A DNA stretch of 64,000 nucleotides from Felis catus (lineage: Eukaryota): positions 93,558,001 to 93,622,000 of the forward strand of contig NC_058375.1 in the NCBI RefSeq assembly GCF_018350175.1, given 5' to 3'. Below the pieces are notes generated by a model, which did no database searches, was not told the DNA's origin, and saw only the letters and a program-made list of their open reading frames with translations. Shown in pieces: positions 22,945 to 31,619 of this stretch; positions within the stretch are counted from its first letter, which is position 1; every line of letters begins with the position of its first letter. The position numbers and the translations under genes were made by a program.

Positions 22945-23509
22945 AACAATCCAATTAAAAAAGGCGCAAACGATCTGAACAGACATAGATATACAAAGTA
23001 GGTATACAGATGGTAAATAACATATGAAATGATGTTCAACATCATAGTCATTAGGAAATTGCAATGTAAAACAACAATGACATACCACTACACACCCATT
23101 AGAATGGCCAAATCCAAAACACTGATAACGCCAAACGCTGATGAAGATATGGAGCAGGAGGAGCTCTCCTTCACCACTAGTGGGAATGCAAAATGGTACC
23201 ACCACTTGAGAAGAAAGTTGGGCAGTTTCTTAAAGAACTACAAATACTCTTACCACAGGATCCAACAGTTATTTGGTATTTGCCCNNNNNNNNNNNNNNN
23301 NNNNNNNNNNNNNNNNNNNNNNNNNNNNNNNNNNNNNNNNNNNNNNNNNNNNNNNNNNNNNNNNNNNNNNNNNNNNNNNNNNNNNNNNNNNNNNNNNNNN
23401 NNNNNNNNNNNNNNNNNNNNNNNNNNNNNNNNNNNNNNNNNNNNNNNNNNNNNNNNNNNNNAAGGCATGGAAGGGGGAACCTTACAAAAGCATATTGCTA
23501 AGTGAAAGA
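22945..23509 (+). mobile_element. L1MC-like 3' region, left part (ERV target)
   Basis: aacaatccaattaaaaaaggcgcaaacgatctgaacagaca...gctaagtgaaaga; ORF2 C-terminal remnant ending GNAKWY. Confidence 0.85.
23286..23461. other. Assembly gap
   Basis: Run of N. Confidence 1.
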
Positions 23510-24334
23510 TGTCGTAGACTCTGGGTCTAAAGTTCTCTCTTGTCTAGCAAAAGAACGGGACGCAAGATTGAAAGCAAGAGAGGCTAATGTCTGGGAAAAG
23601 ACAAGAGCCCCGAATAAGGGTCCTTGCCTGGTATTTATTCAAATCAGAAGGCTTACAAATGTGATGGGTGTGTACAAAGGGACAAAGAAGCTGGGAACAT
23701 TAACTTGGGGACGTGAGGGAAAAGGGGGTTTTGAAGATATACAGTGTTTGGGGTTTGGGTCAATATAAAACAAAATCCGGGCGCCAGGCAGATGGGTGGA
23801 TGGCTGTTAATGGCAGATAGGAGGTTCTGGGCCTGTTTCCCTTAGCCTAGGGGATGAGACAGGTAGGGGGAATAACCTCAGGGTTGACAAGGCACCTTTT
23901 CTTTTGTTAACCCTCTCTGCTCTGGGCTGCTTTGCCTGCAGCAAAGCGGTCCATAGTCCAATTCACCGAGTTACCTAACCTGGCCCTATCCTCCTGTGAA
24001 AGCAGCTTTTCTGCCATGGTACTAAATTGGGGGTGCTTTCACCCTGAACATCTAAAATCTTGTTTATTTCCTATTCCTGTGTACTGGGCACCTTTGCACC
24101 GTTCCTAGTTTAGGCCTTTGCCTCTGCCTCTCTATTCTGGGAGCTCTGCACCCCCTCCCTATCTTGGGGTGCCTTTGCACCTCTCTATTCTTGGCATCTT
24201 TGCGCCTCCCTATTCTTGGGGTGTCAATCTGGTTTACCCAAACTCAGGTGTAAGCATTTTACGGCTTTGTATTTCTTTATGCCTTGTTAACTCATTGGTG
24301 TAAACTCGGGGGATTATTAAGCTTATCTCCCACA
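23510..24334 (-). mobile_element. 3' LTR (825 bp)
   Basis: Minus strand TGTGGGAG...CGACA; AATAAA at ~23634-23639; about 17 differences from the other LTR by eye. Confidence 0.97.
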
Positions 24335-24347
24335 GTTCCCCCTTTTT
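24335..24347 (-). promoter_or_regulatory. Polypurine tract
   Basis: Minus strand AAAAAGGGGGAAC directly before the 3' LTR TG. Confidence 0.9.
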
Positions 24348-26264
24348 GTTTTGTTTTGTTTGTTTGTTTGTTTTTTGTTTTTAGCTTCGTGTTCAAGGAC
24401 CCTCATGATGAGTTCCTGGTCCTTCTTTTGCTTTTGGATGGCTTGGAGGGTGATTCTGCAAAGACCTAAAAAGAGACACAGTAATGGCATTTTGCTTCCC
24501 AAAGTTATCCAGAATTTGAGATGGGTGCTAGCTGTAAGTGAGAAAGGATTTTAGGTCATGCCACATTTCCCAGGAATCAGTCCATTCATTTTTTAAGCCG
24601 ATCCTCTGCATATTGTAGCTGTTGGTGCAATGTCACATCTAAATCTTCTATATCTTCAGAGAGGTGGGAAGAGAAGACACTGTGAAGGTGTGTCTGGACA
24701 GCATCCCAAGCTTGGGAGTGATTATAAGGAATTCCATTCATGCAGATATGCTGGTAGTTAGGGTCACAGGGCAGTTTAGAGGGGAGGAACAAGGCCTGCT
24801 GTTTCTTTCCAAAAGTTTCACTGCAGCCTCAAGAGCTTTGAGGCGGGCCAAAACTTGTCTATCAATAGAAGTTTGGGTTATAAATTTTTTGGTAGTGTTG
24901 ACCATAAATTTATTAAGGACGTGGGCTGTCTGGATAGTATGATGCAGGCTGATTTCAGCTACAGTAGCAGAGGCGATAACACTGACTGCTGCAAGGATGC
25001 CCATGATTAACGGGCTAACAAATCTTTTTTGCCTTGCAGCAGAGTACCAGTGCTGAACAAGCTTGGAAAGCGAGCCTAGTCCTGATGGATGTCTATAGGG
25101 TTCAGAGCTATTAATAGGAACCCAGGTTGAGATGCACTAAGTACTAACAAGGAGGAGATGTTTAATTGGGTGATGTTATTATTACTTACGCAGGACATAA
25201 ACCAACCCTGAGTGATAGAGATATTATAATTATTTCCTAGTTGTCGGATCTGTAAGGTGGAGGTAGCAAAGAGAACGTAGGGAGAAGGGATGCAAATAGT
25301 GGTCCATGTGAATTAGTTATTGTACAGGGAGGTCCCAGTTAGGTTAGCATGTTGCTTTACATGAATCTCACTGTGGCTAATACTAGGAGGGAAGAAGGGA
25401 AGACTTAGCTTCCAAAGATTAACAAGCCAAGGTCCTTTTAATTTCCCTTTATGTGCAGAAATTATAGGGCCAGACAAACCTCCATCTTTCCAAAAAATAT
25501 TCTCCCTACTAGGCTGGCCAAAGGATATGGTCTTACTAGAATATTTTGTTTCAAGATGTCCTCAAGGACCCCTGTCAGTAATAGTCCAATTTCCCCAGTG
25601 AAGATGATGCTCAGTCTCTCCATAACAGGTTGTCCAGGAAATTTATTACAGGGGTGGCCTGACTTTTGAGACCAGAGCAAGCTATAACATTAGCAGTGTG
25701 AGATATGTTTGTTTTTTGAGGTATATCAAAGCATGTGGCTGAGAAAAAGGTAAAATTGACTGGCCTCGTAGAGGTTTTGGGTTGATTTTTAGTTGGAGAC
25801 CAGCAGATAAGTTGCTAAGTTTAGAAACACACATAGGAGGTGCTTGAGTAAGCCATCATTGAGCTCTTGGCATGTAAAGCCAATGCTCTTGTTCAGTTTG
25901 GAAGGGCGGGTTAAGACTGGCTCCTCCCATGAACTCTGTCATTACTGCTAATAGGAAAATCCCAGGCTAGGAGTGTTAAGCTATCAAATATAGATGGGTT
26001 CAGGAGATGAGCCCAATATGAATATTGAGCTTGGCCTGGACAAATGAAGCCAAGAAGAATCAGGGTTACACATAGAGAATTTTTGTTAATGGCAGACATC
26101 ATGGCTATCAGATGTGAATTGGGGGTACATGCAATATCATTGTATTGTAAGAGGATGCCGGCCTGGTTAGACAGGCATTGAAGGCTTCCCCATGTTCTAT
26201 CAGGGGCAAGGACTTGCGATTGTGGAGTGGCCTCAGGATGAGGAGTCCATGAAGAGGCTTCCAT
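24340..26264 (-). pseudogene. env: Decayed beta-type env (signal peptide, SU, TM)
   Basis: TWGSLQCL...YSYWAHLLNP at the N-terminus; furin site RQKR (25023-25034) followed by fusion peptide FVSPLIMGILAAVSVIASATVA; heptad SIDRQVLARLKALE; CX7C loop CDPNYQHIC; multiple frameshifts and stops. Confidence 0.92.
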
Positions 26265-26290
26265 CTTGTAAAAAGGGGGCTGGTAGCCAC

Positions 26291-26740
26291 TCACTCAGAG
26301 TCATTCTCTGGAAGTTCTGGTTCATTGGAAGATATCCTGGGGGTCTCCATTATGCCATGGTAAGGCTTCACCAAACGAGAAGGAATACACAGAAGCCCAG
26401 AATCTGAAAAGACACAAGCAAATCCTCAACCCCAGGTGGCAAGTTGAGTGGGCCCAGTCCGGTTGGGCCCCCCTTGGGGGGTTTTGCATAGCACCATAGG
26501 GTGAGAGGGTTTTTGTGATTTTGAAGAATGTCACTCAGCTGCAGTTAGTCCTTGAGGATTAAGATTTAAAAAGTGAAGAGTAATCCTAGCACTATCAAGA
26601 AGGAGCTGAGGTTGTAATGCAGACAGCCAGGGGTATCTCCCCCTTTTTGTTTTTTTAACATGTTTTTGGGCGTAATAGATGCTCATTTTACAATTGCTTG
26701 GCCTTGTGGATTACAAGGAATGGGTAATATCAACCAAGGC
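26291..26740 (-). pseudogene. pol: Integrase C-terminal remnant of pol
   Basis: IPCNPQGQAIV...KKQKGG...ITLHFLN...TAAE*H...WG*GFACVF...IPSRLVKPY match betaretroviral IN motifs (IPYNPQGQAIVER, WGRGFACV). Confidence 0.9.
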
Positions 26741-26769
26741 TTAAGTAAAACAACTTAAAAAGGCGTGTT

Positions 26770-29290
26770 GTCTTGTTGTTTTACCCTTTTTGTTAAAATT
26801 ATATATTTACTTATTTATTTATTATCATTAACAAAAATATATTATTTTTTCTGTGGTTGTTGTAGGATGCTCTAATTTCATTTTTGCTTAGCGGTAACTT
26901 ACACATTGATCATTGGCATTTGAGGGAGGGGGCTGAAGGGCCAAAGTCAAGGTCTATTCCCCTGTCTTTTTTAGTAATGTCCACATAAATATGTTTTAGC
27001 CATGTGGATATCCATTTGAGGCATACAGTGGGCTAAGTTTAGTAAAATGGCTCCCATGTATCTTAGTAAAAGCCCTTTATATATTATCCATCCCTCATAT
27101 GGCAGAGGCATCCATTCTTTTGCCAAACAGGAACAACATAAATGTGGAGGATTTTGAAGGCTGGCACCAAGAGTATTGGCATTAATTTCCCAGTCTTTGG
27201 ATCAAAGGACAAGGAATTTTAATCTTAACCCTGTATACTTTTAAAATCCATTTATTTTCTAAAAAAATTGTTTTTAATGTTTATTTATTTTTGTGACAGA
27301 GTGAGACAGAGCATGAGCAGGGAAGGGGCAGAGAGAGAGGGAGACACAGAATCTGAAGCAGGCTCCAGGCTCTGAGCTGTCAACACAGAGCCCAACTTGA
27401 GGCTCAAACTCATCAATTGCGAGATCATGACCTGAGCCGAGGTCAGACGCTCAACCCACTGAGCCACCCAGATGCCCCTAAAATCCATTTATTTTAACTT
27501 TAGTCCGTCCTGACCACACATAAAATTTCTTTTTAAAGATTTTCCTTTACGAAACTTTTACAACTTTTCTTTGCGTTTAGGTTTTGTCTCAAGCCGTTTT
27601 TCTCCAAACAACCAGTCTCTTTTAAGACAAAGTTACTTTCTTTTACCTTTAACAAAAATATATTTCCATTTTTTATCTTTTTTTTCTCTTCATATCTCCT
27701 ACTTTCCTACGTACAGAGTTGCTTTTGTTATTTTTATCAGTTTTAATTACATTTAACCAGTTGTGAATTGTCTGTTACATCAGAGAATTTTTTAGGTGGT
27801 AGACTTAAGAATCCATTAAGCATAAAGCATGGATTTAAATATTCTGTTTTTGTTGCCATAAGAAGTTAAAAGCATAAACCGATGTCTAATAAGCAATGCT
27901 TCAGCTTTCCATTTGATTCGGAAGAGGTCTAAATGTCTGAAGAACTTAATTCAATTGCTCATTTAAGCAAAGCGTTGAAGTTTTAGGTTACCAAGGATGC
28001 TGAAAGCTATCTTAACAATTACCCATGGAAACTATGAGGCAAACGAAGTTAACCATTACTTTAAGTCATCCTTTTGCTAACAAACTGGAACAGAGATAAC
28101 ATGAACTTATTTGACCGTTAGCAAACCTTAGTAGAATAAAATTTTATATTTAATGCTGATAACTTTAAAGACAGAGCCAACAAACTTGAATTAGTTTAAA
28201 CACCGAATATGCTTCATTTACCATTTAAATCCTGGGAAGTTTGTGAAAACCTTAGGAAGTTATCATAAAGCACATCCTAAATAGGATTACAGATCGTTAC
28301 AAATCTTGAAACTTTATTTATTTAACCAACGTGGCAATAAAAGATCCTAAAGGTGAACGTACAGCATTATATAGTTGTTAGCAAAACCTAGTTCCTTTAA
28401 CATTGAGAAGTTTTACCTAAGCAATCAAAGACCTGATAAAGATGAAACCTAAAGCTTTGGTTTTTTGGCAAAGAGAAAAAAACCTTCGCTTACAGTGTCT
28501 TATCAAGAGCAGAACAGTCCAAGAAAGCCTTGTTTTTTGAACAGAGAGAAAAGCAGAATTTCAACCTTATATCAGTGTCCTTTTAAAATTCCATTCATCT
28601 CGACCTTAGCAGAATAAAGTCTTATAATTTAAAAGACATGCCTATCTTAATAGTATTTTATCTGTGCCCCCTTAAAAGTTTACCACTGTTAATTTCCCCC
28701 GTGGAACCACTGAAGAAATTTAAAGTTTAAGGGGGTGTTTTTTGCCTTTTGACAGCCTGGGGAGGAGGAGTGCTGTCTGAGGCATTGATGAGTCAGATAT
28801 GCAGGCCGCACTCCAGGAGGTTCAGAAACCAGAAGGGGGGGGGGGGGTAGAGAAGAGAAGGCAGAAAAGGTGAGGAACCGCCTGGAGGCCTGAAGGCAGA
28901 CCGAAGAACGGAGGGCAGAGAAAAAAGTTCACATGGTCCTAAAGCCTGTCAGCTCAGATAGATGAGCAGATATCGACTTTTGCTTTGTTTTGTATTTGTT
29001 TTGTTTTGGTTTTGTTTTCCACTAGCGGAATTAGGCAGTCCATGTCCGGCCAGAAGACAGCGAAGTTCCCCGAAACAAAAGGAGTTTTGGCAGCTGCTTG
29101 GGAATATTCCTTAACATCTTTGTCCCGAGGTAGACTAACCAGAGAGAGTTGGCTCTAATCATCATAGTTATTAATCCAGGAAATGAGTGCGGGAGAAGCC
29201 CTCACATATAGTCAGAGTAACCAGAGTGTATTAGGAGAAACAGTGAGAGAGAGAGAGTTAGAGTCCCCTGTATTAGAGATGGCCTCTGTA
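26770..29290 (-). mobile_element. AT-rich non-coding internal segment replacing CA-CTD/NC/pro/RT/RH; MER4-group (ERV1) internal-like
   Basis: No retroviral enzyme motifs found; minus strand aggtctttgattgcttaggtaaaacttctcaatgttaaaggaactaggttttgctaacaactat...gatctgtaatcctattt resembles recalled MER4-group internal consensus. Confidence 0.6.
27259..27478 (-). mobile_element. SINEC_Fc inside the provirus
   Basis: Full body; 17-bp TSD taaaatccatttatttt at 27242-27258 and 27479-27495. Confidence 0.95.
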
Positions 29291-30198
29291 AAATACACCG
29301 CACTATTTCAGTGCATTGATTTACTGACAATGATTGGAAGCTGGGCTCGCTGCCTTGGTTGGAAATACTGCCCTACATCAGTTGTTTAAAAGACACCGGA
29401 ATAGCAGCAGCAAAGTTCTGCACAGCACTAGTCACGTAAGCAGCATGAAACTCTTGGGCACAGACAGCATACTGGGCTGGGGTCCGAATGATGTTCTGAA
29501 GAGAGCCCAGTCCCAGGCACACATGGAATGAGTGCCATGAATATTTTCTAAAATACCGATTGTAAAAAGGCTGGGATGGACATACAGCCTAACTGATTTT
29601 TGCAATTCTTGTAGTGTTGGAAAGAGCAGGCCTTCATGGCCACATTGCTCATTTTTTCTGACAACAGGAAACAGCTGGAAATTACTGGCCTTATGGACTT
29701 TTTCAATATACTTGTGCATTGGGGTGAGGACTTTATCAGAGTAGGTCAGTGAGGTTTTCAGAGGCTCCATACCGTCCCACCCTTTTGGGGGAGGGGGAGT
29801 ATCTTCTGGCTGTAAAGGAGCCAGAGGCACAATCTGAGTATAGGGGGAGTGAGATCTTTCCTCCTTTTTAGATAACTTTACGTCTTCTGTCTTCCTGTCT
29901 TCTTCTTCGTATGCATTGTCCAAGCTCAAGGGGGGAAGGGCAGTGCGGACAACGGACCAGGTGAGGATTACTTTAGGGGGGACATTAGCCCCTTTAGAAT
30001 GCCTGGCCTGCATTATTTTTTCTACTCCTTCCCACACTTCAAGATCATAAGTTCCTTGTTCTGGGGACCAAGGGCAATTTTATTGGATAGCCAATAATCT
30101 AAGGAGAGCCATATAATTTACGGCAGTCCCTGTTGCCTCTCCTAGGGACTGAAGAATTCAAATATAGCGCTTTTATTCAGGGGGAGGGAGTTTCCCAT
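29290..30198 (-). pseudogene. gag: Truncated beta-type gag (MA, proline-rich spacer, CA N-terminal domain)
   Basis: ATG at 30198 gives MGNS...; CPWSPEQGTYDLEVW...VPPKVILTWSVVRTAL (Gag_p10-like); FPVV...LQELQKSVRLY...FTIGILE...WDW (CA); early stops and frameshifts. Confidence 0.92.
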
Positions 30199-30413
30199 GA
30201 TAGATCTCTCAAAAAGTTCCGCAGCAGCGAATCCTAATATAGTTTCGCTTTGTCCCTTACCTGGTCAGGTAGAGACTGTACCTGGTGCATTTTTTTCTTT
30301 TATTCTTTCTTGGAGCTCCTTGATCGTTGCGCAGCATCCTGCAGTCCTTGTGTCGCACTGCCTGGCCACATAGGCTCCTTGTCCACGTTGGCCCATAGTC
30401 CCCCTTTCTTTCT

Positions 30414-30431
30414 ATCACGTCAGGGTCACCA
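30414..30431 (-). promoter_or_regulatory. Primer-binding site, tRNA-Trp
   Basis: TGGTGACCCTGACGTGAT, 2 nt after the 5' LTR; 17/18 to the tRNA-Trp PBS TGGTGACCCCGACGTGAT, with the difference at a CpG. Confidence 0.9.
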
Positions 30432-30433
30432 TC

Positions 30434-31256
30434 TGTCGTAGACTCTGGGTCTAAAGTTCTCCCTTGTCTAGCAAAAGAACGGGACACAAGATTGAAAGCA
30501 AGAGAGGCTAATGTCTGGGAAAAGACAAGAGCCCCGAATAAGCTTCCTTGCCCGGTATTTATTCAAATCAGAAGGCTTACAAACGTAATGGGCGTGTACA
30601 AAGGGACAAAGAAACTGGGAACATTAACTTGGGGACGTGAGGGAAAAGGGGGTTTTGAAGATATACAGTGTTTGGGGTTTGGGTCAATATAAAACAAAAT
30701 CCGGGCGCCAGGCAGATGGGTGGATGGCTGTTAATGGCAGATAGGAGGTTCTGGACCTGTTTCCCTTAGCCTAGGGGATGAGACAGGTAGGGGGAATAAC
30801 CTCAGGGTTGACAAGGCACCTTTTCTTTTGTTAACCCTCTCTGCTCTGGGCTGCTTTGCCTGCAGCAAAGCGGTCCATAGTCCAATTCACCGAGTTACCT
30901 AACCTGGCCCTATCCTCCTGTGAAAGCAGCTTTTCTGCCATGGTACTAAATTGGGGGTGCTTTCACCCTGAACATCTTAATCTCGTTTATTTCCTATTCC
31001 TGTGTACTGGGACCTTTGCACCGTTCCTAGTTTAGGCCTTTGCCTCTGCCTCTCTATTCTGGGAGCTCTGCACCCCCTCCCTATTTGGGGGTGCCTTTGC
31101 ACCTCTCTATTCTTGGCATCTTTGCGCCTCCCTATTCTTGGGGTGTCAATCTGGTTTACCCAAACTCAGGTGTAAGCATTTTACGACTTTGTATTTCTTT
31201 ATGCCTTGTTAACTCATTGGTGTAAACTCGGGGGATTATTAAGCTTATCTCCCACA
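30434..31256 (-). mobile_element. 5' LTR (823 bp)
   Basis: Near-identical copy of 23510-24334, followed on the minus strand by the PBS. Confidence 0.97.
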
Positions 31257-31619
31257 GGAAGATGCCAACCTGAAAAAGTCGTATACTATGTTCTATGAAC
31301 CCAACTGTATGACATTCTGGAAAAGGTAAAACTATGGAAGCAGCAAAAAATATGTATCAATGGTTGCTAAGCATTTAGGGAGAAGGAAGGATGANNNNNN
31401 NNNNNNNNNNNNNNNNNNNNNNNNNNNNNNNNNNNNNNNNNNNNNNNNNNNNNNNNNNNNNNNNNNNNNNNNNNNNNNNNNNNNNNNNNNNNNNNNNNNN
31501 NNNNNNNNNNNNNNNNNNNNNNNNNNNNNNNNNNNNNNNTTGGTAATGGTGTGTCAATGTTGATTCATGGCTTGTAACAAATGTACCACACTTGGGATGT
31601 TGGTAGTAGAGGCAGCTGT

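Follow-up and report, generated by a model that had tools for sequence, protein, structure and literature searches.

The window, that is, the whole 64,000-nucleotide stretch of Felis catus DNA analysed here, carries on its minus strand a 7.7-kb class II (beta-like) provirus that is probably a defective, non-autonomous recombinant with a class I ERV, formed by template switching. Everything from late gag to mid-integrase has been lost, and the interval between capsid and integrase is filled by a 2.2-kb block without open reading frames and by a SINE that arrived later (Table 1). The backbone is class II and encodes nothing usable, every gene of the provirus being broken.

Table 1. Features of the provirus, by position in the window.
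Feature	Positions	Strand	Remarks
3' LTR	23510..24335	-	826 bp
Polypurine tract	24336..24350	-	Read from sequence, directly before the 3' LTR
env remnant, beta-type	24400..26200	-	Many stops and frameshifts; Pfam GP41 (E 3e-6, 6e-9)
Integrase, beta-type, core end and C-terminal domain	26360..26792	-	Broken; Pfam IN_DBD_C (E 3e-4)
3' join zone, A/T low-complexity tract	26792..26845		About 50 bases
Class I-linked segment (minus SINE)	26845..27573	-	Relatives continue into HERVW9-type gag; putative donor pre-gag, sense
SINE, carnivore, tRNA-derived	27259..27478	-	220 bp; 17-bp perfect target duplication (27242-27258 / 27479-27495)
AT-rich multicopy core	27573..28720	-	GC 32%, no ORF; possibly class I, judged solely from continuity and depth
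GC-normal segment, short microsatellite and proline-reading patch	28720..29050	-	Weakly HEPSI/PRIMA4-like (class I matrix-proline)
5' join zone, decayed beta capsid C-domain or start of foreign block	29050..29310	-	From ends and crossings of related contigs
gag remnant, beta-type (matrix, capsid N-domain)	29310..30170	-	Stops and frameshifts; Pfam/PDB matches
Primer-binding site (PBS)	30414..30431	-	Presumably not the lysine type usual in betaretroviruses
5' LTR	30434..31257	-	824 bp, TG...CA

The class II backbone

The assignment to the beta class is based on matrix, capsid, integrase and a GP41-type TM, all of which are found in the backbone. A frame at 26614-26402 matches PDB entry 3jca (E 3e-6), which we take to be the MMTV integrase. 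The gag remnant includes a 215-aa frame (30079-29432) that matches Pfam Gag_p10 (E 4e-8) and Gag_p24 (E 4e-4) and, in the PDB, the 666-aa Gag of 8c9m (E 5e-6) and the M-PMV matrix; below 29432, a likeness to HML5 gag was judged by eye against the accessible part of the PMC4724089 supplements. Two env frames match GP41, and by eye the TM is like that of HML5, with ISD-like strings, as given in part of supplement 2 of the same paper. Protease, RT, RNase H and the N-terminal part of integrase are unrecognisable in the provirus, whereas the 5' part of gag and the 3' part of integrase can be recognised; the RT and dUTPase-in-pro regions are absent. An initial reading made from the letters of the window (the sequence-only reading) had the block standing in place of pro-pol. 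This holds for protease, RT and RNase H, but the end of gag is missing as well, and the C-terminal part of integrase has been kept.

The two LTRs are about 98% alike (809 matches, 15 mismatches and two single-base gaps), and the six bases outside them (23504-23509 and 31258-31263) agree at five positions, which is likely a target duplication. There are N gaps directly outside both LTRs. The window is mammalian DNA with many carnivore-type SINEs, which we take to be feliform, and the flanks at 22950-23509 and 31258-31395 read like an old L1 3' end, inside which the provirus presumably lies. The PBS looks tRNA-Trp-like, and we assume that it is not of the tRNA-Lys type. In the accessible supplements of PMC4724089, a look-up of the PBS found only a different, Arg-type PBS that shares the first nine letters; supplement 2 gives the HML5 PBS as Ile type, and the PBS is described as a weak marker of ERV class in the available part of PMC6995185. 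A felid class II clade intermediate between alpha and beta, described in the available part of PMC4373062, could be the parent of the provirus.

How old is the provirus? Ten of the LTR differences lie outside CpG, which corresponds to about 3.5 My at the felid rate of 1.8e-9 per year taken from the accessible part of PMC4643047. The LTRs are only 1.8% apart, yet gag, env and the SINE look much older, and the LTR age fits badly with the heavy decay of the interior. The decay of gag and env and the divergence of the SINE point to older sequence, with either conversion between the LTRs or late re-copying of an already decayed RNA. The same part of PMC4643047 describes LTR dates in cats as too young and proposes conversion as the cause. 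Four of six variants tested against the family majority are common to both LTRs.

Composition of the internal block

The sequence-only reading described an AT-rich block without open reading frames, and the longest stop-free stretch in the six frames of 26770-29290 is indeed only 80 aa. The description as AT-rich applies to 26770-28720 (GC 32-35%, with 32% at 27495-28720 and 35% at 26770-27243) but not to 28720-29290, where a GC content of 47.5% is like that of gag. The observed/expected CpG ratio is 0.54 in the AT-rich core (27495-28720) compared to 0.16-0.17 in env and integrase. In the scanned frames of the block, there were no matches to retroviral Pfam families or PDB entries, and the Pfam matches inside it were non-retroviral and at chance level. 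Against the rest of the window, including the L1-like flanks, the block has no match beyond the SINE and short low-complexity sequence, and Rfam returned two SINE-derived tRNA matches and nothing else. The two ends of the block have no likeness to each other and no flanking direct repeat past two chance-level 7-mers. Neither a class I LTR, an LTR remnant nor a target duplication was found at either end, in agreement with the initial description of a block with no LTRs or target duplication of its own.

The initial description did not mention the SINE or its target duplication. This SINE inserted only once the block was established in its family. The SINE-less join (27241>27479) occurs in three contigs each in public runs X1, X11 and X15 and in two reads in X24, and one of the relatives described below (P0012) spans the site without the SINE. 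The SINE is 10% (5.8% outside CpG) off the majority of 17 copies in the window, which are of mixed subfamilies. For the core at 27573-28720, a likeness to translated MER50 internal text was seen by eye, uncomputed.

Upstream of the core, the pyrimidine- and proline-rich patch that was noted at first is present: near 28700-28900, the minus strand is C-rich (38.5% C) and reads as proline, with poly-proline at 28853. HEPSI/PRIMA4-like motifs are found in the right order at 29090, 29042 and 28853, but they are weak and were chosen post hoc, one of them arising in 18 of 100 window shuffles and another being no better than shuffles. No Pfam or PDB match was found in the 5' two-thirds of the block, and a word search with the 28700-29330 frame found no relatives among shorter proteins.

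Probable class I identity of the 3' part

The block was proposed to be class I sequence in the same direction as the provirus. For 27573-26845, this proposal is supported, since relatives of this segment lead into what appears to be a HERVW9-type gag (the chain runs from the window via P0006 and P0004 to P0016), placing it as probable class I pre-gag sequence in the sense direction; the chain passes through ORFs in spurious frames and spans about 0.5 kb of the 2.2 kb. The initial suggestion of a chimera thus appears largely right. For the 5' two-thirds, there are the weak motifs mentioned above and, for the core, continuity and depth.

The relatives were collected with phmmer, using the frame at 27239-26860 against 1.84 billion proteins. 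Nine matches were obtained, of which five short ENA ORFs were retained. The other four (P0001, P0002, P0005 and P0007) were rejected as long repetitive proteins; two were named oomycete proteins, and Tectonin domains were found in two. A profile of the five ORFs yielded 14 proteins among 5705 candidates, from ENA/Logan records. No retroviral Pfam family was recognised in any of the 14, which are translations of related DNA in chance frames. Window positions 27573-26840 were matched at E under 1e-6 by 11 of them and weakly by the remaining three. Eight extend past 26845, seven of these with a common continuation, and none of the continuations matches the integrase region of the provirus. However, the absence of integrase-type continuations is biased, because the profile was built from donor-type sequences and the search covered only proteins of 38-312 aa. 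The closest relative (P0018, 84% identity over 82 aa) has the small deletion that the window has near 27022, and its continuation is donor-type.

The step into gag is made by P0016, which is 100% identical to P0006 over 79 aa and 60% identical to P0004 over 47 aa; both of these are strong matches to the window, while the match of P0016 itself is weak (E 0.12). In a shifted frame, starting about 95 residues past the point where it diverges from the window, P0016 is compatible with 10 of 11 positions of the HERV9/HERV30/HERVW matrix-start motif (the best of 150 shuffles reached 8), and a shorter matrix-start motif was equalled in 1 of 2000 shuffles. Three HERV-W capsid motifs are also found in frame, at offsets of 0, 26 and 37, which is the spacing in printed HERV-W gag; 0, 11 and 1 of 5000 shuffles, respectively, were as good. 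These motifs were picked after the likeness had been noticed, and neither Pfam nor PDB recognises P0016 as a Gag, but a chance match is unlikely, because both order and spacing agree. The donor-type relative thus appears to be a class I ERV whose HERVW9-type gag has lost internal sequence. The gag of P0016 has a large internal deletion, from the start of matrix to mid-capsid, and a short triplet repeat, so the donor itself had probably ceased to be autonomous.

According to the available part of PMC6995185, class I elements characteristically have long pre-gag regions, and part of supplement 2 of PMC4724089 places MER41, called MER4I-group, in the HERVW9 supergroup. The MER4-group label originally given to 27500-28650 is compatible with this placement. 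The idea that 27130-26930 is the C-terminal end of a class I integrase was rejected, having no Pfam or PDB support, and the relatives place the segment upstream of gag.

The two joins

The 3' join does not lie at 26770, where the boundary was first drawn, but at about 26792-26845. Donor-type relatives cease matching at 26840-26853, and contigs from the integrase side reach 26792 at most. The alignment tool also cuts reads at 26796-26826, within the A/T tract. None of the listed contigs crosses this join, and the depth there is near zero in X15.

For the 5' join, the previously drawn boundary of 29290 becomes a bracket (29050-29310). By eye, beta capsid can be traced to about 29310, and 29300-29050 is readable as a decayed beta capsid C-domain. 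No retroviral Pfam or PDB match was found in 29050-29310, and shuffled sequence scored as well as 28750-29330 for beta capsid C-domain motifs. In X1, the depth is 1602 and 998 at 29146-29190 versus 229-657 at 29377-29611, a step that fits a join near 29290. This position is crossed by five of the 24 listed pieces, 84-88% alike, two of which cease to align at 29052, leaving unaligned letters. With a join near 29290, the five crossing contigs would make it a family trait; with one near 29052, they would represent the parent type, and the chimera may be confined to a single locus. At least one of the listed public contigs spans each position from about 28760 to 29580, and the 5' join therefore exists outside this assembly. 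In each of three runs, one related contig lacks a 134-base stretch at 29114-29249 or has other sequence in its place; the family is variable in the 5' join zone.

Read depth in public runs

Four of the 24 listed public runs were aligned to 24336-31257 at 80% likeness. The ratio of block to backbone mean depth was 3.1 in X1, 3.0 in X11 and 1.9 in X15, based on six block and 14 backbone bins; by the tool's own warning, depth is not equivalent to copy number, and its tables were dominated by the SINE. Seven of the 30 bins were left out (two SINE, one microsatellite, one proline-patch and three join bins). The block is repeated, multicopy DNA, and depth is similar in the AT-rich core and the class I-linked 3' segment. 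The proline-patch bin (28725-28955), on the other hand, is the shallowest of all in both X1 and X11 (278 in X1, versus 1193-2218 in the core), and the block may therefore not be one unit. The three LTR bins have 17.6 (X1), 16.1 (X11) and 8.1 (X15) times the backbone depth; an LTR depth of 8-18 times that of the interior suggests a large solo-LTR family. In an RNA run (X24), low, one-sided depth was seen on env (24800-25700) and on the block (27800-28500), with paralogues as the likely source.

Proposed origin of the recombinant

How did class I sequence come to be enclosed in a class II shell? We infer two template switches, a mechanism with a somewhat better than even chance of being correct, which would yield this anatomy in a single round while preserving every beta cis signal. 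Reverse transcriptase would have left the beta RNA within integrase for a class I RNA packaged alongside it and then returned to the beta RNA in capsid, so that about 3.5-4 kb of beta sequence, going by the general size of beta genomes, would have been replaced by 2.2 kb. Because the beta LTRs, PBS, leader and polypurine tract were retained, the product would have integrated as a normal beta provirus, using the enzymes of a helper. It would work, if at all, as a cargo RNA, by analogy with recKoRV or ETn.

The strongest competitor, though itself unlikely, is an origin at the DNA level, whereby a class I ERV integrated in the sense direction into a beta provirus, and deletions then removed both of its LTRs along with adjoining beta genes. 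Variants of this scenario, in which the block is ERV cDNA used as repair filler or the product of ectopic conversion, would give the same anatomy without co-packaging. Secondary insertions of one ERV into another are common (available part of PMC4724089), and a VL30 with an ERV-beta4 inside it is known (available part of PMC6466679). The location of the 3' join in an A/T low-complexity tract also suits such an origin, as would a single-locus chimera if beta gag runs to about 29052 and the five contigs across 29290 are parent-type. However, two separate deletions would be needed, each taking a whole LTR and beta sequence, and neither end of the block has an LTR remnant or a duplication.

It is distinctly improbable that the block is composite, with class I sequence only in the 3' 0.5 kb and with the core and proline patch taken from another non-autonomous element, which would make the provirus an ETn-like patchwork built in several steps. 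Such an arrangement would agree with the uneven depth within the block (the patch versus the core in X1) and with the 5' part being weakly like a HEPSI/PRIMA4 matrix, unlike the HERVW9-type matrix found downstream in the relatives. The accessible part of supplement 2 of PMC4724089 also blames recombination for the trouble in classifying MER4I, some members of which it places in class III. Against this, one relative (P0012) runs from the tail of the AT-rich core into the class I-linked segment, and these two parts have similar depth.

Finally, an assembly chimera of two repeats, or captured single-copy host DNA or L1, can be given very little credence: the scaffold is of short-read style, with N gaps just outside both LTRs and a 3' join spanned by none of the listed contigs, but there is no gap within the element, the LTRs match, the target duplication agrees at 5/6 bases, and a 364-nt public-run contig covers 28726-29091 with one letter differing, while the block is deeper than the backbone, is unmatched elsewhere in the window (L1-like flanks included, SINE and low-complexity sequence aside) and has relatives that lead to gag, not L1. 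Host single-copy DNA and an intact nested insertion, two of the outcomes that the sequence-only reading itself had set against a recombinant, are thus disfavoured by the depth of the block and by the lack of LTRs or duplication at its ends.

Returning to template switching, a more speculative and rather doubtful extension is that the provirus belongs to a whole felid family of cross-class non-autonomous ERVs with an HML5-like shell and a Trp-type PBS, which would have amplified with class I pre-gag sequence in mid-genome. Members would have been re-copied in trans long after the decay of their genes, SINE included, and the captured leader might have given access to beta or gamma particles.

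Wider searches and significance

Pattern scans with the block DNA produced chance matches only (1 + 5 viral loci, 56 in metagenomes and 4 in prokaryote genomes), and 1 of 62 loci gave a 23-base match. One locus (L001) is a chance match in a phage contig with what look like portal- and terminase-like genes, unrelated to the provirus. BLAST against phages and plasmids gave no match, protein-seeded locus scans of viral contigs confirmed nothing, and a word search with the gag ORF among longer proteins found nothing. The ESM Atlas gave no usable match for gag and, for P0004, nothing beyond leads that were unnamed or of low grade. The element was not found described in the literature covered; Repbase, Dfam and subscription papers were outside its scope, and the element may be a named repeat.

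With no coding potential and no known host function, the provirus matters for evolution and for the annotation of repeats. It offers a fairly clear case, outside env, of apparent class I sequence within a class II shell, in a lineage surveyed via pro-pol. If other loci have both joins, class I and class II RNAs would have come together in the same particle within the carnivore germ line, and the product would have spread. Such spread would bear on the degradation of ERV lineages, as modelled for recKoRV, beyond koalas.

Relationship to known systems

The following comparisons draw on the accessible parts of the cited papers. The backbone likely comes from the pool of felid class II ERVs, comprising FcERV-beta1-4 and three clades, one of them alpha-beta-like (PMC4133949, PMC4373062). 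Those ERVs were defined on pro-pol, which is absent here, and pro-pol-based felid screens would therefore miss this provirus. Harlequin is likewise a mosaic, whose MER4I/MER57I-type internal pieces have been attributed to co-packaging and jumps of the polymerase (PMC5753468, PMC4724089), but it is class I throughout, while the cat provirus crosses classes. ETn/MusD resembles it in being non-coding and beta-derived, having LTRs in common with a coding helper and moving in trans (PMC6466679, PMC1331978). However, ETn is active and its helper known, whereas any helper or activity of the cat provirus would be hypothetical, and it retains an env remnant.

In recKoRV1, a recombinant of KoRV and PhER (PMC6112702), the ends of one retrovirus are similarly kept around an interior of dissimilar, mostly non-coding ERV sequence, with a target duplication, and co-packaging was proposed. 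In that case, the shell is a gammaretrovirus of which only short ends remain; here, it is a class II element that keeps most of the 5' part of gag, the 3' part of integrase and all of env. The breakpoints of recKoRV1 have been mapped, some with microhomology, while those of the cat provirus are only bracketed, to about 50 bases at the 3' join and to 29050-29310 at the 5' join.

The sequence-only reading held that known inter-class chimeras usually swap env, and its implication of novelty was too strong: human mosaics of HML1 with a HERV-W-like element and of HML5 with HERV9 are listed in supplement 2, part 6, of PMC4724089. Like the cat provirus, they have, outside env, class I sequence of HERVW9 type in a class II backbone, and four HML5 chains have one pattern. 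These mosaics carry coding pieces of class I gag, pro and pol, are found in primates and are merely listed there, whereas the cargo here is non-coding, putative pre-gag and AT-rich sequence, in a carnivore. Class I/II mosaics are thus already known, though uncommon, in humans, and the cat provirus is a further variant.
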